This document shows, piece by piece, positions 3,101 through 22,313 of a stretch of 64,000 bases of DNA. Positions within the stretch are counted from its first letter, which is position 1. Each line of letters starts with the position of its first letter. The notes beneath the pieces were generated by a model. That model worked only from the letters and a program-made list of their open reading frames with translations, was not told where the DNA came from and made no database searches. A program made the position numbers and the translations under genes. The stretch lies in NCBI GenBank assembly GCA_036844925.1, contig DAIUEW010000020.1, positions 4,716 to 68,715 on the forward strand. The letters run 5' to 3'. This DNA comes from Candidatus Sulfotelmatobacter sp. (GTDB lineage: Bacteria > Acidobacteriota > Terriglobia > Terriglobales > Acidobacteriaceae).

Positions 3101-3644
3101 TCAGTCGGATCGAACCCAGCTGTTGACGAAGGGCTGGGAGTTGCTGAGCATCTCGACCATCACCAGCGGTTCGCCGTTTACGGTTTATTCGGGTATCCAG
3201 CAGACGGGCGCGGGAACGATTGGCGCGGACCGGCCGGACCAGATTGGGATACCCGACCTATCGAGCGCCGGCAGTTCAACCCGACCGCGCGACGATTATT
3301 TTGGGCGGGGTGTGAACAACGCAAGTCTCTTTTCCATTCCCATCGGGATCGCGGGCGGGACCGGACCAAACTCCGGGCGCTTTGGGACGCTCGGCCGTAA
3401 TACATTTCGCGGCCCGGCATATTATGATTTCGATTTTGCGCTCATCAAGACGACTCCGATTGGCCACCGCGAAAGCGGTTCGGAGCTAGCGGACCTGCAA
3501 TTCCGGGGAGAGTTATTTAATCTGTTTAACATCGTCAACATGGGGCTACCGGCGAACATCATCGCGGGTACAGGGTTCGGCATGATCAGCAAGACCGCGG
3601 GAACTTCGCGGCAAATTCAGTTTTCGCTAAAGCTCATCTATTGA
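141..3644 (+). CDS. TonB-dependent outer-membrane receptor with N-terminal carboxypeptidase-regulatory-like domain
   Basis: 1167 aa. Hydrophobic signal-like N-terminus. Ig-like CarboxypepD_reg stretch (GVVRTAAGEPVAGAKVTLYT...TDGRFTIRDF). Plug-like LNGRDFSTLLLLAAGT. Long Gly/Asn/Tyr-rich beta-barrel ending in an aromatic residue (FSLKLIY). Paralogous to 18502-21987 and 55362-58985. Exact start uncertain. Confidence 0.85.
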   Translation: MHEFHYAKEHTIARPFHKAFRLIERLFLLGLMVAVSLKAQQSSPSAPAWTGVVRTAAGEPVAGAKVTLYTPAAKENQTAVTGTDGRFTIRDFRLGPHRVSVQFPGRGPTAPVSVNITGVTVVLTVSDQGVLSIAPNPQTSAAGVSNGNPSTTSNVASGASGEKLSSQKVNELPLNGRDFSTLLLLAAGTMTDVNGQTNFTQQFAINGQRGVEAVFAMDGADVSDPEMGGSTFTNFNVDAIQELQSSSGWMPADIGRGAAGFTNIVTRSGKSGFHGSFFEFLRNSALDARNYFDHPSIADPGRIPPFRRNEFGFTNGGPVVLPNVYDGRDRTFYFVQYQGFRQVLGTTQVLAVPTAAERRGQDVVTYPDGSTDTLHVPVNPAIEKVLARYPLPNNPTGAYGARTYSAPSNVNTDTDQFSIRIDQKVGAKGQLFGRFNYDNLTGPTTNPDQTLLDPSFGVQYVDRQRNGVITYTRTVSPHFLWSTSVSFTRTTPSFVTQNHTDPALKFIDGLYEAFNGAAGSVMSAFGNLFQGQLDFAWTSRRHAVKWGAEARLNRDTTYFGISPNGEYDFGGGTVYSPVFIPSASRQHDVQPGRPLPDTMSSLLLGYPYGYTIAVAPPYASNGAHIGPAAINRNDVNAYIEDTWKINPQWTLDYGLRYEIYTPISERALRTSSFLNSFPPAGVGQEYLINPQPTYQTDRNGWGPRVQVEWHAPQAVHVHMGGAITVIPPNIWQDNLLTGSTPYVVYPRVNAAQNGEISYGFQITPDELPQVYNTAGVNVLASGDPKKVPANTVMDVNRYQQDLAALAPSHQLSLLSLSGIDRRFGNGYLQTWTLGLERAFGGLTADVAYVGTSAFRLPRMSYPNAYPGADSEFARFTNFDGSGAVTGGFGFESVMTATSHSSYNALQTSLSGNVGHGGPSLQAGYTWGKSLDDVSGILGGTGSTGAVTLFSPQDPFDTQAERGPSSFDVTHAFTLSAAQDLHFEHLGLQSDRTQLLTKGWELLSISTITSGSPFTVYSGIQQTGAGTIGADRPDQIGIPDLSSAGSSTRPRDDYFGRGVNNASLFSIPIGIAGGTGPNSGRFGTLGRNTFRGPAYYDFDFALIKTTPIGHRESGSELADLQFRGELFNLFNIVNMGLPANIIAGTGFGMISKTAGTSRQIQFSLKLIY

Positions 3645-3850
3645 GACGCGTCCTGCAGCGACACAGGGTTGGGGGGAGGACAGAAACATTCGTTTCAAGA
3701 AGATTCTGCATTCGTTCCGCTTGACAACTCCGAGATCACGGGCAACACGGAAGTCATTGCGGGCCAGACGTCGGTTTCGAGGAAGTTTCACCAGACGGTA
3801 CGGGGAAACGCGCTCGTGAAGTTGGCATTGTGTAAATCCTGAGGCTTAAG

Positions 3851-4288
3851 TTAGCGCTTATGGGCATCTGCCGCCGAACTCGTCACTGGATCACCCAGGG
3901 CTGCAGTGACCAGTTCGGTGTCGAGATATTCGGTCATTTCCCGGAGCTTTCCATCGCCTAGGCGGAAGACATAGCAATAAGTATTGTTATAAGGCACTCC
4001 GTTTCTGGTCGTATTTCTGCCCCGCGCTTCCACAACGACATAATCTTCGTCAGCGATATACCGGTAGGCTTCGACCACGATTGGAGGAGCGAGCTTGGCG
4101 CGCAGAGCGCCGAACAATTCATCGATCACGGCCCGTTTGCTATCGTATCTCCTAGACCATCTGGTTGTTCCAGTTATCGTCCAGCTAAATTCGTCAGCCA
4201 TTGCCTCTACGAATGGCTGGGAGTTGCCCTTCGAAAGCTCGGAAAAGATATGCTGCATTATTTTCTTGTTCTCGATTGCACCCATCAC
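3851..4288 (-). CDS. NTF2-like / SnoaL-like (ketosteroid-isomerase fold) protein
   Basis: 145 aa with the length and pattern of SnoaL-like cyclase/NTF2 proteins (FVEAMADEFSWTITG...YVVVEARG...YCYVFRLGDGKLREMTEYLD). Function unknown. Confidence 0.6.
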   Translation of the reverse strand: MMGAIENKKIMQHIFSELSKGNSQPFVEAMADEFSWTITGTTRWSRRYDSKRAVIDELFGALRAKLAPPIVVEAYRYIADEDYVVVEARGRNTTRNGVPYNNTYCYVFRLGDGKLREMTEYLDTELVTAALGDPVTSSAADAHKR

Positions 4289-4423
4289 GCACTTCTCCTT
4301 TTCGTTTGTGGTCCCGCAACATCGCCGGCGCTGTAATGTTCGGTCTTCGGCCCGTTGCCGGTTGAAATAAAAACGTCATCGCTTGACTCCGCCCGCATAT
4401 CGATAGTCTCTCTAACATGATAG

Positions 4424-4451
4424 TGACTAACGCAACTCAATTTTATATAAT
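4424..4451 (+). promoter_or_regulatory. Candidate sigma70-type promoter giving a leaderless crotonase mRNA
   Basis: GTGACT (4424-4429), 16-nt spacer, TATAAT (4446-4451). The ATG at 4460 lies 8 nt after the -10 box and has no Shine-Dalgarno. Confidence 0.3.
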
Positions 4452-4459
4452 CGCGCGTC

Positions 4460-5332
4460 ATGCAAAACGAAGAAGTCCTCTATAGCGTAGCGAATCGAGT
4501 GGCCACGATTACTTTGAACCGGCCGGACAAACTGAACGCCTGGACTGCGGTGATGGAGAAGGAAGTGCGTTCGTCGATGGAGAACGCGGAGCGCGACGAA
4601 GACGTCCGGGTAATCGTTTTGACGGGCGCTGGACGGGGCTTTTGCGCCGGCGCTGACATGTCGCTGCTGAGTGCGGTGGCGGAGCACGGCGTCGTTGATC
4701 GGAACAGCGAGGATCAGAAAAGCGGGGTTCAGAACCGCGAGGTTCAGAAGCGCGAGGATCAGAACCGCGAGGCGGCATTGCGCGACGGCGTACCGCTTGA
4801 TTTTCAGAAGAGATACTCTTATTTCCCGGCGATCGGGAAACCGGTGATTGCCGCCATTAATGGTCCGGTGGTTGGCCTGGGCCTGGTGATCACTCTCTAT
4901 TGCGATCTGCGGCTGGCATCGGACGCAGCCCGCTTCAGCACTACATTCGCGCGGCGAGGGCTGGTGGCCGAGTATGGCATGGCCTGGATGTTGCCGCGCA
5001 TTGTTGGCATTGCAAATGCTCTCGATCTGCTGTTTTCTGCGCGGACCATCGATGCCGCAGAGGCATTGCGCATCGGGTTAGTGAACCGAATCCTCCCGCA
5101 GGAAAGTTTTCTTGAGAAGGTGCATGAATATGCCCGCGAACTGGCTTCTACCGTGAGCCCGCGCTCGCTGCGCATCATCAAGCGCCAGGTGTACGAGGCT
5201 ATGTTCCAGCCACTCTCGGAAGCTTTTGATGTCTCTGTGAATGAGATGATGGCGAGTTTCAAGACTGAGGATTTCAAAGAGGGTGTCGCGCATTTCGTGG
5301 AGAAGCGTGCCCCGGCTTTTACTGGTAGATAG
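4460..5332 (+). CDS. Enoyl-CoA hydratase/isomerase (crotonase) family protein
   Basis: 290 aa. Crotonase signatures ITLNRPDKLNA, VIVLTGAGRGFCAGADM, AAINGPVVGLG. Carries an in-frame 5 x 15-bp repeat insertion (see 4697-4771). Confidence 0.85.
   Translation: MQNEEVLYSVANRVATITLNRPDKLNAWTAVMEKEVRSSMENAERDEDVRVIVLTGAGRGFCAGADMSLLSAVAEHGVVDRNSEDQKSGVQNREVQKREDQNREAALRDGVPLDFQKRYSYFPAIGKPVIAAINGPVVGLGLVITLYCDLRLASDAARFSTTFARRGLVAEYGMAWMLPRIVGIANALDLLFSARTIDAAEALRIGLVNRILPQESFLEKVHEYARELASTVSPRSLRIIKRQVYEAMFQPLSEAFDVSVNEMMASFKTEDFKEGVAHFVEKRAPAFTGR
4697..4771 (+). repeat. 15-bp tandem repeat x5 inside the crotonase CDS
   Basis: Units gatcggaacagcgag / gatcagaaaagcggg / gttcagaaccgcgag / gttcagaagcgcgag / gatcagaaccgcgag. 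They encode DRNSE-DQKSG-VQNRE-VQKRE-DQNRE. Confidence 0.9.
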
Positions 5333-5365
5333 GTGGGCAAGCCGCAGGCGATCACATCAATGATC

Positions 5366-5487
5366 TGAGCAGCAAGTTGAGGTGCCTCAGCGGCTAAAGC
5401 CCCAGTGTTTATTGGCCTTGGGCGGCACGACTGAACGTCGTGCCCTTCCCGAACCCATTTTTAAGATGACTAGCTGACTTCTAGTCA
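5366..5487 (+). repeat. REP-like intergenic element, family A (subtype 1)
   Basis: gagcagcaagttgagg-cctcagcggctaaagcc...ggcacgactgaacgtcgtgcccttcccga...catttttaagatgact. Near-identical to the copies at 7459-7660 and 30763-30885. Contains the GC hairpin ggcacgac-tgaa-cgtcgtgcc. Confidence 0.85.
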
Positions 5488-5535
5488 GGCCGGAAACCAA
5501 GGAAAATGGGCATAAGTTAAAGATAGGCGGCAGAA

Positions 5536-6753
5536 ATGGATTTTGCGCTCAGCGACAAAGTAAAGCACCTGCAACGGCGTCTGCAGGGGTTCATGGATGA
5601 ATACATTTATCCGAATGAGCGGCGCTATGACGACGAGATTGAGCGCAACCGCTGGTCGCCTCCTAGCGTCATTGAAGAGCTCAAGCCAAAAGCCCGCGCT
5701 GCGTCGCTGTGGAATTTATTTCTGCCGGATGATGCGCATGGACAGGGGTTAACGAATCTGGAGTATGCGCCGCTGGCCGAAATTATGGGGCGCAGCTTCA
5801 TCGCTCCTGAGGTATTCAATTGCTCGGCGCCGGACACGGGCAACATGGAAGTGCTTGCGCGTTACGGCACAGCGGAGCAGAAGGAAAGATGGTTGAGACC
5901 GCTGCTTGCGGGCGAGATTCGGTCGTGCTTCGCGATGACGGAGCCGGCGGTGGCCTCATCGGATGCAACCAATATTGAGGCGAGTATTGTTCGCCAGGGC
6001 GACGAGTACGTGATCAATGGGCGCAAGTGGTGGTCCTCGGGAGCGGGCGATCCGCGCTGCAAGGTTGCGATCTTTATGGGCAAAACTGATCGCACGGCCG
6101 CGCGACATCAGCAGCAGTCGATGGTGCTGGTGCCGATGCCGGCTGCGGGGCTCAAGATTGAGCGCATGCTGACGGTGTTTGGATATGACCATGCGCCGCA
6201 TGGACACGGCGAAATCACCTTTGAAAACGTGCGCGTGCCTGTTTCGAACATGTTGCTCGGCGAAGGACGAGGCTTTGAGATTGCTCAGGGGCGGCTGGGG
6301 CCGGGGCGCATTCATCACTGCATGCGCTGCATTGGTGTGGCTGAACGCGCGCTTGAAACCATGTGCAAGCGGGTCCAGGCACGCGTGGCCTTTGGCAAGC
6401 CGCTGGCCGAGCAGGGCACTATACGGGCTGACATTGCGCGATCCAGGATGGAGATCGAGCAGGCGCGTCTTTTGACTCTGAATGCAGCGTACATGATGGA
6501 CACCGCCGGAAACAAAGCGGCGCGGGCGGAGATTGCGATGATTAAGGTGGTGGCGCCGAATGTCGTTCTGCGTGTCCTGGATCGTGCGATTCAGGCGCAT
6601 GGAGGGGCGGGAGTTTCGCAGGACACGTTTCTGGCGGGCGCGTGGGCGAATGTGCGCACTCTACGTTTGGCGGATGGTCCGGACGAGGTTCACACCGAAT
6701 CGATTGCGAAGATGGAGCTTCGGAAATGGAGCGGGCCGCGGGCAGGGCGTTGA
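5536..6753 (+). CDS. Acyl-CoA dehydrogenase, ACAD10/ACAD11/FadE2-type
   Basis: 405 aa. Clade-typical stretches [68 protein letters not shown]. Confidence 0.9.
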
Positions 6754-6810
6754 TCTCCTGCGTGTAATCGTTTCAGGCGGAAGTTTTCGCGGAATCTAGA
6801 GGGGACATCC

Positions 6811-7272
6811 ATGCCACTCGTAGTCGAAACACCTGAGTCCTTGAAGGATTTGGTGGGTCGCGAAATCGGCATGACGGAATGGTTCGCCGTCACTCAGGAG
6901 CGCATTCAGGAGTTTGCTGATGTTACTGAGGATCGGCAGTGGATCCATATTGACCCGGACCGTGCACAGCGGGAGTCGCCTTATGGGAGCACGATTGCGC
7001 ACGGGTTCTTAACTCTCTCGCTGTTGAGCCGCTTCATGAAGGAGGCAATTGAGATCCGAAGCGGTCTTCGTATGGCCGTCAATTATGGTTTGAATCGTGT
7101 TCGCTTTCCTTCTCCGGTTCGCGCCGGCTCGAAGATTCGAGCGCAATTTACTCTTCGATCGCTGAAAGAGTTGCCTGACGCGATTGAAGCAATCTTTGAC
7201 GCGACGGTGGAAGCGCAGGATAACGACAAGCCGTGCTGCGTGGCTGAGTGGGTGGTTCGCTACTATACGTAA
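6811..7272 (+). CDS. MaoC-like (R)-specific enoyl-CoA hydratase / dehydratase
   Basis: 153 aa hot-dog fold pattern: FAVTQERIQEFADVTEDRQWIHIDPDRA...TIAHGFLTLSLL. Confidence 0.85.
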   Translation: MPLVVETPESLKDLVGREIGMTEWFAVTQERIQEFADVTEDRQWIHIDPDRAQRESPYGSTIAHGFLTLSLLSRFMKEAIEIRSGLRMAVNYGLNRVRFPSPVRAGSKIRAQFTLRSLKELPDAIEAIFDATVEAQDNDKPCCVAEWVVRYYT

Positions 7273-7281
7273 GACGATCAC

Positions 7282-7390
7282 GGGGGCTGAAGCCCCGAGG
7301 AATGTAGCGACTCACGCGGCGCTGAAGCGCCGCTCTTCCACGGTCGCCGACCTATGCGGCTCCGAAGAACTGCTCTTCCACGGTGGTGGC
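7282..7390 (+). repeat. REP-like hairpin element (family A/B composite)
   Basis: cgggggc-tgaa-gccccg hairpin followed by gcggcgc-tgaa-gcgccgc-tcttccacggtcgc. Same core as 43546-43616. A partial second ctcttccacggtgg lies at the 3' end. Confidence 0.8.
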
Positions 7391-7458
7391 TAGATTGGTG
7401 AAGGTTTTCCGCAATGCGTGCAGCTCTGCCCAAAAGCTAGAAGGCATTTCACAAATAG

Positions 7459-7660
7459 TCCGGAGAGCAGGTCGAGGGACCTCAGTGGCTAAAGCCCTCG
7501 TCTTTATTGGCTCTGGACTGCACGACTGAAGTCGAGCCCTTCCCGAAATTGGCTCTGGGCGGCACGAGTGAAGGTCGTGCCCTTCCCGAGGTTGGCTCTG
7601 GACTGCACGAACGTCGTGCCCTTCCCGAAACCATTTATGACATGGCTGCTAGTATGAAGC
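7459..7660 (+). repeat. REP-like element, family A subtype 1, with a triplicated hairpin module
   Basis: Head tccggagagcaggtcgagggacctcagtggctaaagccc. Then three tandem 39-43-bp modules (7507-7548, 7549-7591, 7592-7630), each ttggctctggRcKgcacga..cgtcgWgcccttcccga. Tail ccatttatgacatggct. Confidence 0.85.
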
Positions 7661-7665
7661 GGCTT

Positions 7666-8388
7666 TTAACGGTGGGTGCAGAGGCCATCAGCGGCGAGGT
7701 GCGGCACGGCATTGAAGGTAAACAACCGTAGTTGCTCTTTTCTCAAACGCAGGATTGTGTAGGATGCGTTGTAGACTGCGCCAGCGAGGCGCATTACGCG
7801 CGCGTCGGAAATCTCCAGGGACAGGCCAGTGCAAATCGCAACCGGAGTGGCCGACGTGACGATGACAACGTTCTCGCGTGCATCAGCGATTTTCGATCGG
7901 CAGGCCGCAACGCGCTCGCGGAATTGCTGCCAGGTTTCGCCGCTGAAGGGAAAACGACCGGAAATCCACGCCTCAACCAGTTTCGTATCGCAAGGCAGCC
8001 ATTTGCGATGAATTCTCGCTGCGTGCGCGCCTTGGCTGATTCGCACCTGCTCCCGCATCTCTTCATATTCAAGGCGGAATTCAGAATTTTCAGCGCACAA
8101 ACGCGGAGCAATCTCGCGATACACGCGGCTGAGATCAAACTCATCCCAGGCAGGATCGAGGCTCACCGCGGGGAAGGAAACACCAGCATCGGCATAAGCC
8201 GCGCCGACCTGGGCGGCGGTTTGCTGCTGGCGGGACAGCGCTCCCACATAGGCCGAGGCAAATTGGATTCCCTGGGAGACGAAATGCTCGCCCAGCAGTC
8301 GCGCCTGCCGCATTCCCAATTCAGAGAGGGAATCGTAAGCGTCGCGCGTTCCCGCCTGGCCATGGCGCACAAGATACAGAGTGGTCAA
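7666..8388 (-). CDS. Histidine phosphatase (phosphoglycerate-mutase-like) family protein
   Basis: RHG catalytic motif (TTLYLVRHGQAGTR) directly after a TTG at 8388. That TTG overlaps the upstream stop as TTGA. The Arg-rich 5' extension of ORF 7666-8739 overlaps the kinase gene and is rejected. Start codon inferred. Confidence 0.75.
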   Translation of the reverse strand: MTTLYLVRHGQAGTRDAYDSLSELGMRQARLLGEHFVSQGIQFASAYVGALSRQQQTAAQVGAAYADAGVSFPAVSLDPAWDEFDLSRVYREIAPRLCAENSEFRLEYEEMREQVRISQGAHAARIHRKWLPCDTKLVEAWISGRFPFSGETWQQFRERVAACRSKIADARENVVIVTSATPVAICTGLSLEISDARVMRLAGAVYNASYTILRLRKEQLRLFTFNAVPHLAADGLCTHR

Positions 8389-9500
8389 CTTAGTTGTCCT
8401 GTGAGGGAGTCTGCGAGCTCGACTAGTCCTCGGACACGTTCGCCGAAATTTCGGAAGCGCGCGTCCTGGGTCTGGCCACGCCGGAAGCGGTAGTAGATCT
8501 GCTGCAGAATTACGGCCAGCTTGAAGACGCCGAGCACTTCGTAGTAAGGGATGTGCGAAAGGTCGCGACCGGTGCGTTCGGCATAGCGTTGTACGAATTG
8601 ATCTCGTGTGTACCATCCGGCCTGCGATGTGAGTGCGGGAACGCCTCGGGCGCGCAGTTGCGGCGCTTCTGCCCAAGCCCAGTAACACAGAGTCAAACCC
8701 AGATCGGCGAGCGGATCGCCGACCGTTGCCATCTCCCAATCAAGCACAGCTTCGATTTTGTCAACAGCGTCGATTTTGTTCACAGCTTCGATTTTGTCCA
8801 CAGCTTCGATGCGACCCGCAGAACCAACCGCAAGCATGATGTTATCCAGCTTGTAATCGTTATGCACGAGGGTGGGCGCGGGAGAAACTGGCCTGCGATC
8901 GATGAGCCATCGAATCACACTATCCATTTTAGGCATGTCATCAGTTTTAGCCCGGTGCCAACGATCAGCCCAGCCTTGCACCTGGCGTGCAAGAAATCCC
9001 TCGGGCTTGCCGAGGGCAATTAATTCGGGCCTCGAAGCGTCGATGGCATGCAGCCGGATCAGGCAATCGATAAAGGCTTCGCTCACACGCTGCGCGTAAT
9101 TCGGCACCTTAGCGAGCTGAGTTGGAACCTCATCGCGCAGTATTAGCCCATGCCTGCGTTCCATCAGAAAGAAAACGGCGCCCAGCACTGTTGGATCCTC
9201 GCACAAATGAAAAACGGCTGGAGCTTCGTGAAAATGCGGATGCACCGTCTGGAGCACGCGAAATTCGCGCGCCATGTCGTGGGCTTTGGGCGCGACGGGA
9301 CCAAGAGGGGCGCGCCTGAGCACGTACTCGCGGCCATCTCCATTCATCCGCAACAGATAGGTCAGGTTCGAGTGTCCCCCCGGAAACTGTTCGACTGTGA
9401 CACCTCGTTCCGCACCTTCGATTTTTCCAAGCAGCCAATCGGCGAGGGAAGCTAGATTCAGTTCTTCGCCGGGACGAACTGAAATGACATCGGAGTGCAC
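8385..9500 (-). CDS. Phosphotransferase (APH/choline-kinase fold) family protein, ACAD10/11 N-terminal-domain type
   Basis: 371 aa with a GTG start. FPGGHSNLTYLL, YVLRRAP, catalytic loop LVHNDYKLDNIML, metal-binding LDWEMATVGDPLADL. Contains an 18-bp x ~4 in-frame repeat. Confidence 0.85.
   Translation of the reverse strand: MHSDVISVRPGEELNLASLADWLLGKIEGAERGVTVEQFPGGHSNLTYLLRMNGDGREYVLRRAPLGPVAPKAHDMAREFRVLQTVHPHFHEAPAVFHLCEDPTVLGAVFFLMERRHGLILRDEVPTQLAKVPNYAQRVSEAFIDCLIRLHAIDASRPELIALGKPEGFLARQVQGWADRWHRAKTDDMPKMDSVIRWLIDRRPVSPAPTLVHNDYKLDNIMLAVGSAGRIEAVDKIEAVNKIDAVDKIEAVLDWEMATVGDPLADLGLTLCYWAWAEAPQLRARGVPALTSQAGWYTRDQFVQRYAERTGRDLSHIPYYEVLGVFKLAVILQQIYYRFRRGQTQDARFRNFGERVRGLVELADSLTGQLS
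8745..8816 (-). repeat. 18-bp tandem repeat x ~4 inside the kinase CDS
   Basis: Plus-strand units cacagcttcgattttgtc / aacagcgtcgattttgtt / cacagcttcgattttgtc / cacagcttcgatgcgacc. They encode (IEAVDK)-like hexapeptides between the catalytic loop and the DWE motif. Confidence 0.9.
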
Positions 9501-9538
9501 TTGAGAACCTTTCTTGCTAGAAACTCCCGCCGATCAGC

Positions 9539-10918
9539 TCAAGCGGAGTGGGCAGCGTTCCAAACGCGCACCCTTTCGAGACTGGCGAGGAACGGCTTTA
9601 AGGCTGCATAGAGAAACACCGCCGCGAGTCCGCATGCCACCGATGTCACGATGACCAGCGAGTAGCGCACGGCATCATCCCGTCCAAACGCGTACTGTGT
9701 CAATGCTCCCACGGCAGTGGGTCCGATTCCCAGCCCGATGAGATTGATGGAGAACAAATACACAGCGGAGGCCTGCCCACGCATGGTTGGGGGCATCATT
9801 TGCTGAATGGCGGCGGGAGCGATACCGAAGGGAGCTGCGGCAAGCGCGCAGCCGGCAACCAACCAGAGGGTTGCCCAAGTCGCCGACGGCGCCAGGTACA
9901 AAAGACAATTAACAGGTATCCCGACTAGTCCGATCAGTGCACCCACAAACAGGGTCGCGTTGTCGCGGCCGCGCTTGCGCAAGTAGTCAGCGATCCGGCC
10001 CGCGCTGATGATTCCGACGCAACCGAAGATCGCGACGCAGGAGCCGTAGACGACGCCGGTGCTTCCGATTGCCCAGTGGAAATTGCGCCGATAGAATTCC
10101 GGGACCCAAGCGGCACTGGCGTATGAAGAGAGCGCAAGTAGGCCGAAACCGATGTTGTGGAGCAGGAATGTCCGCCGGTTTTTGAAAATATAGGAGAAGA
10201 CTTGCCGCGCTGGAACAGGCGTCCGTCGGGCAGTTCCGGGGCGTGCGGAGGGTTCGCGTACGGTAAAGAGCAGGGGTGCCACAGCAATGCCCGGAAGGCC
10301 GATCGAAAGAAAGATGATCTGCCAGGGATGGACGGCTCCCAGCAGCGGAATGGTCCACATGGATTGGGTCGAAGCATACGCCACGACTAGTCCACCGAGC
10401 AGGTAGGCCAGGCCGGAACCGATGTAGATGCCCATCGAATAAACGCTGAGTGCAGTGGCCAGACGGTCACGAGGAAAATAATCGGTGATGAGCGAGTAGG
10501 CAGCGGGTGAAAGCGCCGCCTCTCCGACGCCCACACCCATGCGCAGCAAAAGCATTGTTTCGAACGTAAAGGCCAGCCCGCAACCGGCCGTAAACCCACT
10601 CCACAACACCAGGCCGGCCGCGATAATCAGCCTACGGCTGTATATGTCGGCCAGCCTGCCGAGAGGGATTCCGAAGAATGTATAAAACAGCGCGAAGCTG
10701 AATCCAATCAGCAAACTCATCTTAGCGTCGCCGATGTGTAAGTCGCGACGAAGCGGGCCGACCAGCAGACTGAAGATCTGGCGGGAGATGAACGAGAACG
10801 CGTACAGAAGCGTTAAGACGCCGACGACGTACCAGGCGTAGCGCAATGAATGTGCGGTAGAGTCGGCCGTGGTCTGAGCAGCGGCGGTTGTGGCTTCGGT
10901 TGGCGTTATAGAGGGCAT
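9539..10918 (-). CDS. MFS transporter (Spinster-like)
   Basis: 459 aa with about 12 hydrophobic segments. MFS loop motif GIPLGRLADIYSRR. Reads into the kinase gene (38-bp gap). Confidence 0.85.
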   Translation of the reverse strand: MPSITPTEATTAAAQTTADSTAHSLRYAWYVVGVLTLLYAFSFISRQIFSLLVGPLRRDLHIGDAKMSLLIGFSFALFYTFFGIPLGRLADIYSRRLIIAAGLVLWSGFTAGCGLAFTFETMLLLRMGVGVGEAALSPAAYSLITDYFPRDRLATALSVYSMGIYIGSGLAYLLGGLVVAYASTQSMWTIPLLGAVHPWQIIFLSIGLPGIAVAPLLFTVREPSARPGTARRTPVPARQVFSYIFKNRRTFLLHNIGFGLLALSSYASAAWVPEFYRRNFHWAIGSTGVVYGSCVAIFGCVGIISAGRIADYLRKRGRDNATLFVGALIGLVGIPVNCLLYLAPSATWATLWLVAGCALAAAPFGIAPAAIQQMMPPTMRGQASAVYLFSINLIGLGIGPTAVGALTQYAFGRDDAVRYSLVIVTSVACGLAAVFLYAALKPFLASLERVRVWNAAHSA

Positions 10919-11067
10919 CTTTTTGTAATTTCGTTTGCTTCAGATGATTGACGAGAATGATTGACGGGATCAGTAGTTCCGGCTGTCCGCGCGGTTAGAG
11001 CAATCATCCTGCAGACGGACGCGCGAAACCTACGGTAAGGCACCGCGCGTCCGGCTGTTGCTCGCTG

Positions 11068-12723
11068 TTAAAAAGTGTCCCAAAACGTTGAGCACTGGTG
11101 ACTACTGTTAAAGTCGGACTCGACCACTGGCGCCGGTGGTATCAACGATTGGAACTCGTCGGTTGACGCACTGTAGGGAGACCAGAGCGGTTCATCGGAG
11201 GAATTGGGGTCTCCCTTCTTCGCGAACTGCGTCCAGTAGCTGACCATCGCATCGGAGAGTTGGATTTGCTGGCTTGAAAGCGTTGTCGGAAGTCCGAAAA
11301 CATCGATGCCCGGGAACAGGTATTGAAGCTCAGAGCTATGATAGGCACCCAACGGAAAGGTTAACAATCCGCCAAACAAAGACTGCGCGGGGGGAGCGTT
11401 CTCATCGTTGAACTCATAGGCATAGGTCGGCACGAGTTTCGACAATGCTTGATCCACGTTGCGCGCGGGACAGCTGAAAACTCCGTCGGTACCCGATGCT
11501 CCCAGTGCCTCGCCACCGACAGGGTATGCGGCGAATGGGTACAAGGCGAGGACGGGTGGACCGATCGGACCCCACAGAGCATTGGAGTCAGCATCGTACT
11601 CTCCCGAAGTCAATATCGGATTCCCGACGAGGTCGAAGTCAAGAGCGACAAACAATCGATATTCATCGTGATTGGTGCCCGCGATTACCTGCACGTGATT
11701 GAATTCGCCGCTGGCAAAAGCCTCGCCGATTGTCTGTGTAAGAAGCGTTCCATCGACGAAAGGATACAGGGGGAATGGCTCTTTCGCGACCATCGTCGCA
11801 GCGGGAACGGCACGCAGACACGAAGCTGTCTGGCTCGTGCATCCGACACTGTCGGCAATCGCGGCACCCGACGGTACGCTTCGAGTGCCCGTCGTTTCGG
11901 CCTGCGCCAGAGTCACGACATTGGAAAAATAATCCTGGAATTCTGCATATGACCCGCTTTCCGCAATCGCTCCTCGGAACAGGCCCGACGCAAGAGGAGA
12001 GGCCAGCTGGGCGTAGACGCTTTGTCCGCCCGCCGACTCACCGAATATCGTGATTCGGTCGGGATCGCCGCCAAAGTTCGCAATGTTCCTGCGAACCCAC
12101 TTCAGCGCGAATTGCTGATCCATCAAACCATAGTTGCCATTGAGATGGCCTTCTGCATCGATCGCAGACTGGGCAAGGAATCCCAGGAAACCCAGGCGGT
12201 AATTAATGGTAACGACAATCACGTCTTTTCCTACGAGCAGCTCGGGATTGTAAGGTGTGCTGCTGCCATTAATGAGTCCTCCTCCATGAATCCAGAACAT
12301 CACCGGGAGGCCGCGCCGATCGTGATCACGCCATCCATCATGCGATTTCACCTGTGGGGTGAAGACATTCAGGAAAAGGCAATTCTCGCCGCCGATTCCT
12401 CCAGGTTGGGTGCACGCACTGCCGAATTGGGTCGCCTGGAGGAAAAATCCTGGAAAAAGGCCGTAACGCTTCGGCGGTTTCCAGCGCAGAGATCCTAGCG
12501 GCGGAGCTGCGTACGGGATGCCGAGAAATTGGTTTACGCCATCTGTCGTTGAGCCAATCACGACTCCGCTTTCAGTAAGAGCAATCGGAGGGTGAGATGA
12601 GTCGCTGGCAGATGCAGTGGGCGCCGAACTCAGCGCGACCACGCAGATCGCCAATCCAAGCAAAAGTTTATAGGTAAAGCCAAAGTGATCGAGCCGCTTG
12701 TTCGCGTTCTCTGTGTTTTTCAT
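11068..12723 (-). CDS. Secreted type-B carboxylesterase/lipase
   Basis: GIPYAAPPLGSLRW, HGGGL, nucleophile elbow FGESAGG. Signal peptide LLLGLAICVVALSSAPTASA. Start placed at the second ATG (12723), preceded by GGAGGA; the ORF extends to 12738. Confidence 0.85.
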   Translation of the reverse strand: MKNTENANKRLDHFGFTYKLLLGLAICVVALSSAPTASASDSSHPPIALTESGVVIGSTTDGVNQFLGIPYAAPPLGSLRWKPPKRYGLFPGFFLQATQFGSACTQPGGIGGENCLFLNVFTPQVKSHDGWRDHDRRGLPVMFWIHGGGLINGSSTPYNPELLVGKDVIVVTINYRLGFLGFLAQSAIDAEGHLNGNYGLMDQQFALKWVRRNIANFGGDPDRITIFGESAGGQSVYAQLASPLASGLFRGAIAESGSYAEFQDYFSNVVTLAQAETTGTRSVPSGAAIADSVGCTSQTASCLRAVPAATMVAKEPFPLYPFVDGTLLTQTIGEAFASGEFNHVQVIAGTNHDEYRLFVALDFDLVGNPILTSGEYDADSNALWGPIGPPVLALYPFAAYPVGGEALGASGTDGVFSCPARNVDQALSKLVPTYAYEFNDENAPPAQSLFGGLLTFPLGAYHSSELQYLFPGIDVFGLPTTLSSQQIQLSDAMVSYWTQFAKKGDPNSSDEPLWSPYSASTDEFQSLIPPAPVVESDFNSSHQCSTFWDTF

Positions 12724-12776
12724 CGCTGATTCCTCCATCAGTTGCTCAATGTTGTTGTGCGTTCTAAAAACCCCTC

Positions 12777-14906
12777 TTACGCCATCACGGTTTGTTCTTT
12801 ATTGAACTCGGCAAAGGTCCTGCCTTCTTCGGCGAGACGTTTCAGCAAGGGAGCAGGCTCCCAGAGTTCGCCGTGCCGTTGATGAAATTCTGAGATGCGG
12901 CGGTAGACCTTATCCAGTCCGACCGCGTCGGCATACCACATCGGACCGCCGCGATAGGCTGGGAAGCCGTAACCATTCAGATAGATGATGTCGATGTCGA
13001 CGGCGCGCAGAGCGATGCCTTCGTCGAGAATGCGCGCGCCCTCATTCACCAAGGCATAGATGCAGCGGTCGACGGTCTCCTGGGATGAGATCTTGCGTGG
13101 CGCGATGCCGGCTTCGCTCGCCCACTTCCGCACCCATTGGTCGACTTCAGGATCGGGAATCGCTCGTCGGTTCTCGTCATACTTGTACCAGCCCGCACCG
13201 GTTTTCTGGCCGTAGCGTCCAAGTTCGCAGAGACGATCCTCGGCGAAGGGCTGGCGCACGCCAGGTTTTTCGAGGTGCCGATACTCTTTGCGGATACGCC
13301 AGCCGACGTCAAGGCCCGCCAGATCGCCTGTAGACATCGGTCCCATGGCCATGCCGAAGTCGTGCAGTGCCTGGTCGACAGCTTCAACGCTTGCGCCTTC
13401 TTCAACAAGGAACTGAGCTTCGCGGCGGTAGGGGCCGAACATGCGATTTCCGACAAAGCCGCGGCAGTTGCCAACGGCCACACCGACTTTGCCGAGTTTT
13501 TTCGAGAGCTGCATGCAGGTCGCGATCACGTCTTTGCCGGTTGCCTTGCCGCGTACGATTTCGAGCAGGCGCATGATATTCGCGGGACTGAAAAAATGAG
13601 TGCCGACTACGGCTTCAGGCCGCGAAGTGGCCGAGGCTATTTCATCGATGTCGAGGGTTGATGTGTTACTCGCCAAGATCGCCCCTTTCTTGCATGCTCG
13701 ATCCAACTGGCCGAAGACTTCTTTCTTGAGCACCATGCCCTCGAATACGGCCTCGACCACCATATCCACTTTGCCGAAATCGTCGTAGCTGAGGGTTGGG
13801 CGAATCAGCTCCAGGCGTTCATCCACGAACTGTTGGGTGAAGCGTCCGCGCTTAACCGAACTGAGGTAATTCTTCTGGATGGTGGCTAGCCCACGATCAA
13901 GTGTCGGCTGGTCGGCGTCCTTGAGCAACACGAGCATGCCGGCGTTGGCGAACACCATGGCGATTCCGCCTCCCATGGTTCCAGCACCGACTATCGCCAC
14001 GGAGCTTACCGGGACGATGGGAGTTTCTTTTGGTATGTCCGGAATCTTGGCGACCTCGCGCTCACCGAAGAAAACATGGATGAGCGCCTTGGATTGATCC
14101 GAGAAAAGGCAATCGTTGAATAGCTTTTGTTCAACCTGGCAGCCTTCATCAAAGGAAAGCTTGGTAGCGGCTTCCACCGCGTCGATGGCCGCCAGCGGCG
14201 CGATCATGCCGCGCTGTTTGGTGCGAGCCTTCTCGCGTGTGGCAGCGAAGACGGGTGCATTCTGCTCGAGAGTGCCCAGTTTAACGTTGCGCTCACGAGT
14301 CTTGAGGAGGGGGCTTCCGGCGATTCCGCGCGAGAAAGTTATGGCGCTCGTCAGTAGATCGCCCTCGATCAAACGGTCCACAAGCCCCAGTCGCAGGGCT
14401 TCCTGAGCTGTGATTGGGTTGCCTTCCGAACACATCTCGACGGCTTTTGCAACGCCCACGAGCCGAGGTAAACGCTGCGTACCGCCTGCGCCCGGAATAA
14501 TTCCGAGCTTCACTTCGGGCTGACCCATTTGCGAATTCGGAGCAGCCACCCGATAGTGGCCAGCCATGGCAAGCTCAAGGCCGCCGCCGAAGGCGCTGCC
14601 ATGAATGGCGACGACAACGGGTTTGCGCAGATTTTCTATCTGAAGCAAAAGCGGAAGGAGGCCTGCGCCGCGCTGGGTTTTGCCAGACGTGATCTTGCCG
14701 AATTCTTTTATGTCGGCGCCGGCGACGAATGTGCGGCCGCCACCAATCAGCACCACCGCCTTGATGCCGTCATCTTTGGCCACCTCAAAGGCCCTGGCAA
14801 TCCCCTGCGCGACGGCGGGGCTCAAGGCGTTCACGGGAGGATTATTGATGGTGATGATTGCGACATCTTTATTCTTGTCCCGCGTGAGTTGAACCAGATC
14901 GTCCAT
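12777..14906 (-). CDS. Bifunctional enoyl-CoA hydratase / 3-hydroxyacyl-CoA dehydrogenase (FadB/FadJ-like)
   Basis: 709 aa. N-terminal crotonase ([21 protein letters not shown]). Central NAD-binding [13 protein letters not shown]-terminal 3HCDH domain. Confidence 0.9.
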
Positions 14907-14972
14907 AAAACTCGCTCTCCTGCTGGGTTGACGACTGAAACCGGGGTCTTGTTTCTCGATCTTTACTTTTTA

Positions 14973-15001
14973 TTTTTTGTTTTTTGTTTTTTGTTTTTTT
15001 G
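14973..15001. repeat. (T6G)x4 heptanucleotide tract in the fadD-like/fadB-like spacer
   Basis: ttttttg ttttttg ttttttg tttttttg. On the coding (minus) strand this is an A-rich (CA6)n tract about 67 nt upstream of the 14906 start. Confidence 0.9.
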
Positions 15002-15031
15002 CTTTAAAGCTAGCTCAATTACTCCAGGGAT

Positions 15032-16639
15032 TTATTTGTGCGTCGTAAATTGGGGCTGACCAGTTTGGTTTTCGCTCCAATACTTTTGCCGCAGGCCTTT
15101 TTTTAGAACTTTGCCGGTCGCCGTTTTGGGCAAGCCCTCCAGGAACTCAATCGACCGTGGACACTTGAAGTGCGCGATACGCGATCGGCAAAACTCGAGC
15201 AGCTCCGCTTCTGTCAGATTTGATCCTGGTTTGGGTACCACAAGTCCCTTGGGCACTTCTCCCCATTTTTCATCCGGGACTGGAATGACAGCAGCCTCGT
15301 AAACGTCGGGATGGGCCACGATGGCCTTCTCCACCTCGAGCGATGAAATGTTTTCGCCACCACTGACAATGATGTCTTTCCTGCGATCAACGATGAGGAT
15401 GTATCCATCCTCGGTAATGGTGGCCATGTCTCCGGTATGGAACCAGCCGTCGCGCATCGCGTCTGCAGTGTATGCGGGCTGTTGCCAGTATCCCTGCATC
15501 ACGCCATCGGAACGAGCGATAATCTCGCCCATGGTTTCGCCGTCGCGTGGAACATCGTTGCCCTCACCGTCCACAACCCGAAGCTCCACACCTGGAATTG
15601 CGTATCCGGTCTTTGCCCGAGCCACATAGCGCTGCTCGCCCTCGACTTCGACTCCAAGCTTTGGTTTGGCGGTAGAGAGCACCGGAGAAGTTTCCGTCAG
15701 GCCGTATCCGGCAAAACAAACACAGCCAAGTTTTTCCTCGACCTCGCCTACCAAGGTGGGAGACGATGCTGCCCCGCCAATTGAAATCCACTGCAGACTG
15801 CTCAGATCGTATTTTGGCCGCTCGGGTGAATTCACTAATGCCGTCGCCATGATCGGCACGAGGCTCAGCGAATCGACGCGCTCGCGTTCAATCAATTGAA
15901 AAACTTCCGCGCAGGTAAAGCGCTGAATCATGACATGTTTTCCCCCGACGAAGGTGACCGAGTGGGCCGTACCCCAGCCGTTGGCGTGGAACAACGGAAT
16001 GGTATGCAGGTCTACGGTCTCAGCTTTAGTAAGGAATGTCAGACAAACCGAGAGCGCATGCAGATAGATATTTCTGTGGGTCAGCATCACTCCCTTGGGG
16101 TCGGCGCTGGTGCCACTGGTATAGAACAGTTCAGCAAGGGAGTTTTCGTCGAAGTCCATAATGTCGGCGCGGTATGGGGTCGCGGCGGCCAAAATGTCTT
16201 CATAATTCTGCGATGAAAGCCACGAGGCTTGCGGTGCGGAGTCAAGCAGGAAGAAAGTCTGCAAGTTTGGAACGCTGTGGCGGAAAGAATCTACGACTCC
16301 TTCGAACTCTTTTTCCAGAAAGAGCACCTTCGCACCGGCATCGTTCAGGATGTATGCCAGTTCACGAGGCGCAAGGCGGATGTTCAACGGAAGCAAGACT
16401 GCGCCAGCTTCCAGAACGCCGTAATAGGCTTCGAGAAGCCGATGGCAATTCAGGCTGAGAAATGCGACGCGGTCGCCGGCTTTCACTCCGGCTGCGCGCA
16501 GAGCGCCGGCGAGGCGGCTGGCGCGTTCGGCGAATTGGGCGTAGGTGAACCGCAGGTTCCCGCAGACTATGGCGGTCTTACCAGGGAACTGCTGTTCAGC
16601 GTAGCGCAGGAATCGTACGGGGGTAAGCGGAATATTCAT
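15032..16639 (-). CDS. AMP-dependent acyl-CoA synthetase (fatty-acid--CoA ligase)
   Basis: 535 aa. AMP-binding motifs YTSGTSADPKGV, GYGLTETS, GWFHTGD, and a C-terminal PKTATGKV-type lysine. Confidence 0.9.
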   Translation of the reverse strand: MNIPLTPVRFLRYAEQQFPGKTAIVCGNLRFTYAQFAERASRLAGALRAAGVKAGDRVAFLSLNCHRLLEAYYGVLEAGAVLLPLNIRLAPRELAYILNDAGAKVLFLEKEFEGVVDSFRHSVPNLQTFFLLDSAPQASWLSSQNYEDILAAATPYRADIMDFDENSLAELFYTSGTSADPKGVMLTHRNIYLHALSVCLTFLTKAETVDLHTIPLFHANGWGTAHSVTFVGGKHVMIQRFTCAEVFQLIERERVDSLSLVPIMATALVNSPERPKYDLSSLQWISIGGAASSPTLVGEVEEKLGCVCFAGYGLTETSPVLSTAKPKLGVEVEGEQRYVARAKTGYAIPGVELRVVDGEGNDVPRDGETMGEIIARSDGVMQGYWQQPAYTADAMRDGWFHTGDMATITEDGYILIVDRRKDIIVSGGENISSLEVEKAIVAHPDVYEAAVIPVPDEKWGEVPKGLVVPKPGSNLTEAELLEFCRSRIAHFKCPRSIEFLEGLPKTATGKVLKKGLRQKYWSENQTGQPQFTTHK

Positions 16640-16669
16640 GACTCAATGCGTCCTGCAAAAATCTCGTCA

Positions 16670-17569
16670 CTACCAGGCGGACTGACCTCCATCTACTACG
16701 AGCACGTGGCCGGTGACAAAATTAGAGGCGTCGGAAGCGAGAAAGACAGCTGCTCCTTTCAAATCATGTTCGTTGCCAAAACGCTGTAACGGAATGTGTG
16801 AGAGGAAAAGATCTTGATGATGCTCCAGGACGCGGCTCGACATGTGAGTGGGAAACCATCCAGGCGCGATTGCGTTCACCTGGATGTTGTGAGCCGCCCA
16901 CTTACATGCGAGATCTTTGGTGAAGGCGATGACTCCGCCTTTGCTGGCGTGATAACCGGGTGCTGAGAGTTCCGGAGGAGCGCCGCCCAGTCCAGCTACC
17001 GACGCGATGTTGATGATCTTTCCCTGGGTGGTCCTTCCCTGGCTGAGCTTTCCTTGGTTGAGCTTCCCTTGGCTAAGCTTTTCGCGGTTTTGCTGGATCA
17101 TGACTTTGCCCACTGCCTGGGCGCACAGAAAAGTGCCGGTCAGGTTGGTCTCGATAACCTTGTTCCAATCTTCCAGCCGCATCTCCTCAACGGGAGCGCC
17201 CCAGGAGATTCCCGCGTTATTGATCAGGACATCGATCTTTCCGAACTGCGAGAGAGTCGCGTCGACAACTTCCTGAATGCTGGCCGGACTCTTAACATCG
17301 CACGCCAGGGCAATGGCTTTGACACCGAGTTGCTGCAACTCCTCGGCGGCCTGAAGGCAGCGCTCCTGCTTGCGAGCGCACAATACAATGTTGGCGCCCA
17401 TTTCTGCGAGGCCCTCGGCCATTTGACGTCCCAATCCGATGGAGCCTCCGGTAATGATCGCCACACGCCCGGTAAGGTCGAAAAGCTGCTTCACATTCCT
17501 GGTTGAATTCTGCGTGGTGGAATTCTGCACGGTGGAATTCTGCGTAGTTCCGGCAGCATCCTTCAACAT
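16670..17569 (-). CDS. SDR-family oxidoreductase
   Basis: 299 aa. Rossmann TGGSIGLG, NNAG, catalytic YHASK. Two in-frame pentapeptide-repeat insertions. The ATG at 17569 is preceded by the tandem SD array; an alternative GTG lies at 17494. Confidence 0.85.
   Translation of the reverse strand: MLKDAAGTTQNSTVQNSTTQNSTRNVKQLFDLTGRVAIITGGSIGLGRQMAEGLAEMGANIVLCARKQERCLQAAEELQQLGVKAIALACDVKSPASIQEVVDATLSQFGKIDVLINNAGISWGAPVEEMRLEDWNKVIETNLTGTFLCAQAVGKVMIQQNREKLSQGKLNQGKLSQGRTTQGKIINIASVAGLGGAPPELSAPGYHASKGGVIAFTKDLACKWAAHNIQVNAIAPGWFPTHMSSRVLEHHQDLFLSHIPLQRFGNEHDLKGAAVFLASDASNFVTGHVLVVDGGQSAW
17021..17095 (-). repeat. 15-bp tandem repeat x4-5 inside the SDR CDS
   Basis: Plus-strand units tttccctgggtggtc / cttccctggctgagc / tttccttggttgagc / ttcccttggctaagc, plus one degenerate unit. 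They encode KLSQG-KLNQG-KLSQG-RTTQG. Confidence 0.9.
17501..17545 (-). repeat. 15-bp tandem repeat x3 at the SDR N-terminus
   Basis: ggttgaattctgcgt / ggtggaattctgcac / ggtggaattctgcgt. Encodes TTQNS-TVQNS-TTQNS ahead of the Rossmann fold. Confidence 0.9.
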
Positions 17570-18411: not shown

Positions 18412-18501
18412 TGAGTGCTCCGTAGAGTGAAACAAAAGTGATCGCGGCCGCTGACGGGTAGTCTCACGACCAACGTTAGAACCAACCAGCCTTCCCGGCC
18501 G

Positions 18502-21987: not shown

Positions 21988-22313
21988 ACGATTCTCCTTA
22001 CGGATGTCTGAAGACTTCGCCAATTGCAGTGCGAGTCAGTTCCGAAGCCCGCTAAGTACTCACCCCAAGAGCCGTCAATGCTGATCTGTCGCCCGTTTCC
22101 TTCAGGATCAAGAATTCAAATGACGTCCAGCAAAACCACAGATTGTGAGAGTGAGTATCACATAAGAGTAACTAACGTCAAGAACGAAAATGTCAATTAT
22201 CCAACTGAGCCAAAGGGGAACCTAGGTTTTTGCGCGGCCGTCGCCCATCGGGACACTGCGAGAAGAAAAACTTAGTATCGAGTAGATTTGGATCCCGATT
22301 GCGGCGCGGCCGC

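Follow-up and report, generated by a model that had tools for sequence, protein, structure and literature searches.

A serine-for-histidine PGAM-fold protein as recurrent partner of the kinase in an acidobacterial ACAD10/11-type locus

In the levulinate (lva) pathway of Pseudomonas putida, according to the pathway descriptions in PMC6692424 and PMC11342911, the kinase LvaA acts with the small protein LvaB to phosphorylate 4-hydroxyvaleryl-CoA, from which LvaC then eliminates the phosphate group. The operon of strain KT2440 consists of the LvaA kinase, LvaB, the acyl-CoA dehydrogenase (ACAD)-like LvaC, the short-chain dehydrogenase/reductase (SDR) LvaD and the CoA ligase LvaE. Paquay et al. (PMC11342911) reported that the purified Burkholderia pseudomallei kinase Q63VL0, which is active alone, and the ACAD Q63VL1 each replaced the corresponding domain of mammalian ACAD10 in vitro. 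LvaC and the ACAD10/11 domains by themselves turn 4-phosphoacyl-CoA into enoyl-CoA (PMC11342911, PMC12440821). On 4-phospho-hydroxyhexanoyl-CoA the phosphatase activity of the ACAD10 HAD domain was negligible, although mutation of this domain increased the output of the kinase (PMC11342911); a 2026 preprint describes the ACAD10 kinase as a 1-O-alkylglycerol kinase and its HAD domain as a 1-O-alkyl-2-acetyl-glycerophosphate phosphatase, and reports that several prokaryotic homologues of the kinase phosphorylate chimyl alcohol (PMC13596139). In Pseudomonas citronellolis, a 2019 study placed a histidine-phosphatase gene between the lvaA and lvaC homologues, found no lvaB homologue in the region analysed and called for functional analysis of the phosphatase (PMC6692424). 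Here we examine the same kind of association in Acidobacteriota, in a 64,000-nucleotide stretch of contig DAIUEW010000020.1 from Candidatus Sulfotelmatobacter sp. (assembly GCA_036844925.1; hereafter the window), where an APH-fold kinase, a PGAM-fold protein and an ACAD10/11-type enzyme are encoded close together.

Like P. putida lva, with which it was compared by description, the window holds an unfused APH-fold kinase and an ACAD10/11-clade enzyme, has a CoA ligase and an SDR in its wider gene array, and has a predicted chemistry running from 4-hydroxyacyl-CoA through 4-phosphoacyl-CoA to 2-enoyl-CoA. Unlike P. putida lva, the window kinase adjoins a PGAM-fold gene and no small ORF, kinase and ACAD lie on convergent strands, a major facilitator superfamily (MFS) transporter stands in place of LvaF/G, and the surrounding esterase, FadB/J-like enzyme and outer-membrane barrel speak for hydroxy fatty acids of greater length, or their esters, as substrates and less for levulinate. 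The lva cluster of P. citronellolis LA18T (PCLA_07f0390-0396), with its lvaA, histidine phosphatase, lvaC and lvaD homologues, presents by description the same kinase-PGAM-ACAD association, but it is levulinate-induced, gammaproteobacterial and collinear, with the SDR within the operon. Against mammalian ACAD10/11, the ACAD domain matches at ~1e-141 and shares the HHCMR and ADGPDEVH motifs exactly, the kinase is a homologue (1.7e-36 against ACAD11) and, as in ACAD10, a phosphatase-fold protein accompanies it; the window, however, encodes three separate polypeptides, and its phosphatase is non-homologous to the ACAD10 HAD domain because it is PGAM-fold, not HAD-fold. The standalone kinase and ACAD of B. 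pseudomallei (Q63VL0/Q63VL1) resemble the window pair in being unfused, but the window kinase shares only ~31% identity with the Burkholderia kinase type, and in the homologous clusters of B. cenocepacia and Caballeronia the PGAM gene precedes the kinase.

An earlier note, made from the sequence of the window alone, had read the locus as the split bacterial version of ACAD10/11. It was right about the type of module, but unfused bacterial kinase and dehydrogenase pairs are already known from P. putida lva and B. pseudomallei (PMC11342911). Its description of the role of the ACAD10 HAD domain as unclear is outdated, since that domain has negligible phosphatase activity and restrains the kinase in one study (PMC11342911) and is an ether-lipid phosphatase in another (PMC13596139). 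The new part is a conserved PGAM-type partner of the kinase whose active site is unusual; a histidine-phosphatase gene in that position had a single earlier mention, from 2019, in P. citronellolis. The note knew of no characterisation of this association; we too found none in the literature, but the gene beside lvaA had been pointed out in P. citronellolis (PMC6692424). The note missed that remark, as it did the absence of a canonical second catalytic His and the optional status of the partner.

All six open reading frames (ORFs) of the core locus are present at the coordinates first described, as the ORF list and translations show, and Pfam assigns all six proteins with E-values from 1e-19 to 1e-54 (Table 1); the gene content, the convergent layout and the quoted motifs, RHG included, are as the note had them. 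A plus-strand crotonase-ACAD-MaoC set converges with a minus-strand MFS-kinase-PGAM set across a gap of 393 nt (7273-7665), so that the ACAD lies 1.6 kb from the kinase on the opposing strand, while the MFS gene sits directly upstream of the kinase with a gap of 38 nt. The TGA stop of the kinase and the TTG start of the phosphatase overlap as TTGA, the sequence reading ...caa cta agT TGA cc..., again as had been claimed. This TTG start fits the homologues (~240 amino acids, aligned across 100% of the query), and in related genomes the phosphatase match starts at the kinase match end. There is no small ORF between the kinase and its neighbours, and the PGAM gene overlaps the kinase stop. An Rfam scan of 3600-11200 gave zero matches, and promoter and terminator scans were uninformative, terminator-like sites being at chance level.

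Conservation of the arrangement was assessed by a profile scan of genome contigs with a 12-sequence phosphatase alignment, which yielded 80 loci, all from Acidobacteriota; evidence across phyla was drawn from a plasmid collection and contig look-ups. The kinase lies directly upstream of the PGAM gene on the same strand in 57 of the 72 acidobacterial loci with enough upstream sequence, and both the kinase and an ACAD10/11-type enzyme fall within 4 kb of it in 42 of the 52 loci whose flanks each extend for 4 kb or more. Some acidobacterial loci have a collinear kinase-PGAM-ACAD-MaoC operon, many Terriglobales-like loci keep the MFS-kinase-PGAM order, and relatives retain the crotonase-ACAD-MaoC order; the MaoC gene adjoins the ACAD in most acidobacterial loci and belongs to the same cluster in Deinococcus and Haladaptatus. 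Beyond the phylum, gene order varies: MaoC...ACAD-SDR-kinase-PGAM in Deinococcus, PGAM-kinase-SDR(-SDR)-ACAD in Caballeronia and B. cenocepacia, ACAD-SDR-SDR-kinase-PGAM in Streptomyces and ACAD-kinase-PGAM-SDR in Acinetobacter baumannii, with PGAM-kinase adjacency also in Sulfitobacter and Pseudoalteromonas. Seven distant PGAM members (29-35% identity) comprise five with a kinase in the cluster, one that is unlinked and one on a contig too short to tell. PGAM-kinase adjacency thus spans Acidobacteriota, Deinococcota, Actinomycetota and Alpha-, Beta- and Gammaproteobacteria in both gene orders. An arrangement seen again in 57 of 72 related acidobacterial loci, and outside the phylum too, goes far beyond what chance would give. 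The cross-phylum check proposed in the note accordingly finds the kinase-phosphatase-ACAD neighbourhood conserved both within Acidobacteriota and outside it.

The PGAM gene has the kinase as its steadiest partner and acyl-CoA oxidation as its constant setting, in which it is a frequent yet optional accessory. In Pyrinomonadaceae it often stands without an adjacent kinase, directly behind a very-long-chain acyl-CoA dehydrogenase (VLCAD)-like ACAD and by electron-transfer flavoprotein (ETF) genes, and for that reason remains in an acyl-CoA context. One Pyrinomonadaceae metagenome-assembled genome offers an example (L054, 1237-8729), in which the PGAM gene follows the VLCAD-like ACAD by 7 nt, with TetR, ETF alpha/beta and a Fer4/CCG protein, probably an ETF-oxidoreductase, alongside.

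The PGAM-fold protein belongs, by its sequence, to a large and distinct subfamily; a HMMER search recovered 1,177 clusters (50% identity) at E <= 1e-10, and the nearest genome locus encodes a phosphatase 96% identical to that of the window. Residues R8, H9, R53, E83, S179 and N226 are invariant in 53 full-length relatives (29-60% identity) and remain so in the members from Deinococcus, Caballeronia, Sulfitobacter, Streptomyces and Pseudoalteromonas (~30% identity). In profile-to-PDB alignments the invariant Ser179 (TSA or TSGG) falls on the second catalytic His of PspA (SHT), CobC (SHQ) and 9mmh (GHG), and none of the family members examined has a His at this position. The family therefore keeps three of the four core catalytic residues, with an invariant serine as the fourth. 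An AlphaFold2 model is a confident PGAM fold (pLDDT 96), and its top Foldseek matches, PspA, 9mmh, PhoE, RosC and PGAM5, are all phosphatase-type, at 16-20% identity (E 7e-11 to 1e-8; target-normalised TM-score 0.6-0.76). Extra helices between residues 86 and 143 of the model suggest an enlarged cap. Compared with branch 1 phosphatases (PspA 4ij5, PhoE 1h2e, CobC 6e4b, RosC, PGAM5), the fold, the RHG nucleophile motif, the second Arg, the acid Glu and a C-terminal N-x-x-x-H-L are shared; the window protein differs in having RHGQA for RHGE(S/T), Ser for the second His, a larger helical insertion and only 16-20% identity. In the source records its homologues are annotated as 'broad specificity phosphatase PhoE' or 'histidine phosphatase family protein'. 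We considered whether the near-invariant His230 (NxxPHL) might compensate for the lost second His; it does not look family-specific, as PspA and 9mmh share this C-terminal motif while having the canonical His, and His230 itself is not conserved in the Streptomyces and Pseudoalteromonas members. Nor was a Rosetta-stone fusion found: the sole long member (P0247, 478 amino acids) has an unrelated C-terminal extension that is neither kinase nor ACAD. These extra ~240 amino acids resemble a SlyD/FKBP-type prolyl isomerase by eye, and may reflect a true fusion or a gene-calling artefact.

The note ascribed ACAD10/11-clade signatures to the dehydrogenase, and this holds. In a phmmer search against the PDB it matched Mycobacterium abscessus 4hr3 (6.5e-142), mouse ACAD11 8v3u (3e-141) and human ACAD11 2wbi (2.5e-141, 474 bits), whereas the top ordinary ACAD, 1ukw, reached merely 4.7e-45 (158 bits). 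A 13-residue segment with the HHCMR motif and both upstream arginines is identical in the window enzyme and in human and mouse ACAD11. Window Asp380 (LADGPDEVH) aligns with the catalytic Glu of the canonical MCAD 1ukw (IYEGTNEIQ), and also with the Asp that was mutated to Asn in the mouse ACAD11 entry 8v3v. A catalytic Asp, the HCMR motif and an upstream Arg near the flavin are features specific to ACAD10/11 and LvaC (Rashan et al., PMC12440821), and the Asp of ACAD10/11 is described also in PMC11342911. Because scores, HCMR motif, upstream Arg and catalytic Asp all agree, the window protein sits in the ACAD10/11/LvaC clade on every sequence criterion, and it is a bona fide enzyme of that clade, predicted to eliminate phosphate from 4-phosphoacyl-CoA to give 2-enoyl-CoA. 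The pattern RLxxxR[IL]xHxMR and the Asp-Gly pair are invariant in nine kinase-adjacent ACADs that we aligned, including ones only 36-43% identical to the window enzyme. A strict HHCMR pattern had placed some kinase-adjacent ACADs outside the clade; this was rejected once the alignment showed a relaxed [HT]H[CTA]MR with the Asp kept.

The kinase belongs, by sequence, to the family fused to ACAD10/11 enzymes in animals, in line with what the note had proposed. Its top PDB match is 9o56 (8.5e-101), followed by 3dxp (3.4e-41) and the mouse ACAD11 kinase domain (1.7e-36). The segments VLRRAPLG, MAREFRVL, HNDYKLDN and LDWEMA align with R61, E78, D214/K216/N219 and D234/E236 of 9o56, which is probably the C. 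thermarum structure of PMC13596139, whose residue numbering fits. That study reports the beta3 Arg, the alphaC Glu and the HxDxKxxN and DWE residues as catalytic, and the window kinase carries all of them; we predict it to be a 4-hydroxyacyl-CoA kinase. Between the catalytic loop and the DWE motif it bears an in-frame tandem repeat encoding DKIEAV (8745-8810, minus strand; Tandem Repeats Finder, 18 nt, 3.7 copies), which the alignment shows to be absent from 9o56 and the more distant kinases. Its copy number varies among the close relatives L004, L005, L007 and L008, suggesting that copies are still being gained and lost in surface loops.

When a hydroxyl group sits on an even-numbered carbon, chain-shortening ends in 4-hydroxyacyl-CoA and beta-oxidation stalls. 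At this locus, hydroxy fatty acids would be converted to CoA esters and then shortened by beta-oxidation, for which the acyl-CoA synthetase and the FadB/J-like gene are candidates. The APH-fold kinase would phosphorylate the 4-hydroxyl of 4-hydroxyacyl-CoA, the ACAD10/11-type flavoenzyme would eliminate the phosphate to give 2-enoyl-CoA, and the crotonase and MaoC hydratases would feed this product back into beta-oxidation. We consider the kinase-to-ACAD phospho-elimination route very probable from homology and hallmark residues, the experiments behind it being those on homologues from P. putida, B. pseudomallei and mouse and human ACAD10/11. The PGAM-fold protein, whose translational coupling would tie its amount to that of the kinase, would act as a hydrolase on phosphorylated hydroxyacyl species beyond the dehydrogenase's reach, shielding the CoA pool in the manner of an overflow or repair valve; candidate substrates are excess 4-phosphoacyl-CoA, products of wrong stereochemistry or position, and free 4-phospho acids. 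It would be an optional accessory and not a core step. The composite reading, an acidobacterial lva/ACAD10-11-type 4-hydroxy acid pathway with the PGAM-fold protein as an active overflow or repair hydrolase, is in our judgement evenly poised. We infer a catalytically active, atypical histidine phosphatase: catalysis is plausible because His9, Arg8, Arg53 and Glu83 are invariant across phyla and both the fold and the nearest structures are those of phosphatases, and the kinase would not need the partner because the purified B. pseudomallei kinase is active alone. Together with the persistence of the PGAM gene in kinase-less beta-oxidation contexts, these points favour an active hydrolase, and the proofreading or futile-cycle role suggested in the note is a reasonable hypothesis.

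Several observations pull against an overflow or repair hydrolase. When loci outside Acidobacteriota were sampled from the kinase, the PGAM gene was present in two of eight and absent from six of eight, so it is dispensable for the pathway; in Cupriavidus oxalaticus, Haladaptatus and M. branderi no phosphatase gene was found in the annotated flanks of the kinase. Around the Sulfitobacter PGAM-kinase pair, no HxMR-type ACAD was found within 6 kb. Since an invariant Ser replaces the second catalytic His, hydrolysis may be weak or altered, and ATP would be wasted if a phosphatase co-translated with the kinase attacked the main intermediate. The substrate of the window kinase is also not beyond doubt, because prokaryotic homologues phosphorylate 1-O-alkylglycerols according to the 2026 preprint. 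Our literature search found no biochemical data for any member of the PGAM subfamily.

The loss of the second catalytic His across the family, and a translational coupling that suggests stoichiometric production, would also be expected of a non-catalytic partner that binds the phospho-intermediate or the kinase and tunes its activity, as LvaB or the kinase-restraining HAD domain might. The P. citronellolis phosphatase gene, placed between lvaA and lvaC in a region where no lvaB homologue was found (PMC6692424), and the HAD domain of ACAD10, which is negligible on 4-P-OH-C6-CoA yet restrains the kinase (PMC11342911), both agree with such a role. A pure scaffold, however, is not expected to keep the nucleophile His, both Arg and the acid Glu invariant across phyla. 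Moreover, the B. pseudomallei kinase works alone in vitro, the Pyrinomonadaceae genes occur without an adjacent kinase, the Rhodococcus 100-amino-acid protein in the LvaB position is dissimilar to the PGAM family, and one locus has both a small hypothetical protein and a PGAM gene; we regard the regulatory role as unlikely, if still credible. The authors of the P. citronellolis study suggested instead that the phosphatase is an obligatory forward step that removes or transfers the phosphate of 4-phosphoacyl-CoA (PMC6692424), and its tight clustering with kinase and ACAD is compatible with this. LvaC and the ACAD10/11 domains nevertheless suffice for the conversion of 4-phosphoacyl-CoA to enoyl-CoA (PMC11342911, PMC12440821), simple hydrolysis would only regenerate the kinase substrate, and many kinase and ACAD loci have no PGAM gene, which makes such a step very improbable. 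It is harder still to see the phosphatase as an unrelated, broad-specificity PhoE-like enzyme that neighbours the kinase by chance, as the PhoE and histidine-phosphatase labels of the source annotations might imply: adjacency holds across six or more phyla or classes, with the two genes in either order and the sequences only ~30% identical, and the subfamily is distinct from PhoE in its 16-20% identity, its Ser for His and its enlarged helical cap. Chance neighbourhood was already disfavoured, and we judge it extremely improbable.

Many Acidobacteriota make ether-linked membrane lipids, and the gene array includes an esterase and an alpha/beta hydrolase; both points count for a kinase-phosphatase pair acting on glycerolipids, the kinase on 1-O-alkyl- or monoacyl-glycerols and the PGAM-fold protein on the lipid phosphate, as proposed for ACAD10. 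The phosphorylation of chimyl alcohol by prokaryotic homologues (PMC13596139) agrees with this, as does the top kinase match 9o56, which fits the C. thermarum numbering. Across phyla, however, the kinase is linked to acyl-CoA enzymes (ACAD10/11-type, SDRs, hydratases, ETF, CoA ligases) and not to glycerolipid enzymes, bacterial homologues act on 4-hydroxyacyl-CoA (PMC11342911), and acetyl-CoA stimulates the kinase (PMC13596139), fitting a CoA-binding substrate site; we find a glycerolipid role improbable. A broader proposal would make the Ser-for-His PGAM-fold protein a dedicated partner of ACAD10/11-type kinases and a non-homologous counterpart of the ACAD10 HAD domain, the two forming a kinase/phosphatase control pair for phosphorylated lipid intermediates, which in Acidobacteriota might act on alkylglycerol(-phosphate) in ether-lipid salvage besides, or instead of, 4-phosphoacyl-CoA. 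We put this forward as a distinctly doubtful idea; were it true, bacteria would already have, in separate genes, the dual-pathway logic now put forward for ACAD10.

At issue is how cells control 4-phosphoacyl-CoA, a reactive and CoA-sequestering intermediate, a question on which the two accounts of the ACAD10 HAD domain, restraint of the kinase and ether-lipid phosphatase, diverge. Bacteria offer a simpler handle, as here a gene of its own encodes the phosphatase fold, in translational coupling with the kinase and with conservation across phyla; among the species that carry it are tractable organisms and pathogens, for example Pseudomonas citronellolis, Acinetobacter baumannii and Burkholderia. 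Knowing the substrate of the PGAM-fold protein would decide if a repair or overflow valve is built into the pathway and would annotate a family, matched by thousands of database clusters, now labelled 'broad specificity phosphatase PhoE', while its function would show what a PGAM-fold enzyme does without the second catalytic histidine. The locus also suggests how peat and soil Acidobacteriota process hydroxy fatty acids that otherwise stall beta-oxidation at the 4-hydroxy stage.

Other genes stand beside the kinase in various loci, among them some of those sampled outside Acidobacteriota. The PGAM slot holds a 100-amino-acid hypothetical protein in Rhodococcus opacus (L085, 6103-6405) and an epoxide hydrolase overlapping the kinase stop in Sphingobium (L089, 3983-6063; a single case). 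A further locus (L102, 4569-5000) encodes a small hypothetical protein of 143 amino acids right after the kinase, the position of LvaB and that of the Rhodococcus protein as well, and holds a PGAM gene besides. The two small proteins show no relation to one another or to the PGAM family, and Pfam and NCBIfam scans gave no match for either. The idea that an LvaB-type small protein is a degenerate PGAM was rejected for these proteins, an hhalign comparison of the Rhodococcus protein with the PGAM profile giving a probability of 0.1%. In Haloferax mediterranei (pHME132; L087, 2795-5954) a HAD hydrolase lies beside a divergent ACAD/kinase pair, which echoes the HAD-kinase-ACAD make-up of ACAD10; it is a generic HAD protein (TIGR02253-like, below cut-off, with a weak epoxide-hydrolase-N-terminal-type match) and, being a single case, was not counted as evidence.

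Table 1. Genes of the core locus and of the surrounding array in the window, with the family matches that support each assignment
Feature	Coordinates	Strand	Evidence
Outer-membrane protein, 1167 aa	141-3644		CarboxypepD_reg plus OMP_b-brl_4
Crotonase-family enoyl-CoA hydratase/isomerase	4460-5332	+	Pfam ECH_1 7.5e-54; NCBIfam PRK06210 380 bits (cut-off 341)
ACAD10/ACAD11/LvaC-type ACAD-fold enzyme	5536-6753	+	three Pfam ACAD domains
MaoC-type (R)-specific enoyl-CoA hydratase	6811-7272	+	Pfam MaoC_dehydratas 8.6e-22
PGAM-fold protein	7666-8388	-	Pfam His_Phos_1 1.7e-19
APH-fold small-molecule kinase	8385-9500	-	Pfam APH 8.6e-41
MFS transporter	9539-10918	-	Pfam MFS_1 1e-41
Carboxylesterase, N-terminal signal-like segment	11068-12738	-	Pfam COesterase 1.6e-104
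FadB/FadJ-like bifunctional enzyme	12777-14906	-	Pfam 3HCDH_N plus ECH_1
Acyl-CoA synthetase	15032-16639	-	Pfam AMP-binding 1.2e-85
SDR	16670-17569	-	Pfam adh_short 1.3e-56
Alpha/beta hydrolase	17563-18435	-	Pfam Abhydrolase_1 1.6e-35
Outer-membrane beta-barrel, 1173 aa	18502-22023	-	Pfam OMP_b-brl_4 3.5e-104, CarboxypepD_reg

Upstream of the MFS gene, whose product has a D-galactonate transporter subfamily as its top NCBIfam match, under that family's cut-off, and is a probable importer of organic anions such as hydroxy acids, same-strand genes continue with short gaps across 11068-22023, followed by a TetR regulator and a VLCAD-like ACAD. In relatives, the FadB-like gene and that of the esterase keep their synteny with the kinase. 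Membership of these genes in one operon, and any LvaE- or LvaD-like roles among them, would be consistent with this layout; for the SDR, we do not claim equivalence to LvaD, as its 23-32% similarity to the cluster SDRs elsewhere is general SDR background. Two very large outer-membrane proteins bracket the lipid-catabolic genes, both of them probably TonB-dependent-type substrate importers typical of Acidobacteriota. The array as a whole looks like an island for the uptake and beta-oxidation of ester-derived (hydroxy) fatty acids, the particular substrate being a conjecture from gene content.

Repeats are common in and between these genes. Besides that of the kinase, in-frame tandem repeats occur in the crotonase gene (4697-4772, 15 nt x5.1), the SDR gene (17014-17081 and 17500-17545, 15 nt each) and the alpha/beta hydrolase gene (17574-17605, 6 nt). 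The gap between the MaoC and phosphatase genes holds two sets of ~40-43-nt repeats, one at 7283-7384 with GC-rich hairpins and the other a 43-nt x3 array at 7506-7630. The repeat core GTCGTGCCCTTCCCGA recurs at 5437-5452, in the crotonase-ACAD gap, and at 30837-30852, with five matches against 0.1 expected; the repeat has no Rfam match and looks like a dispersed, REP-like intergenic element.

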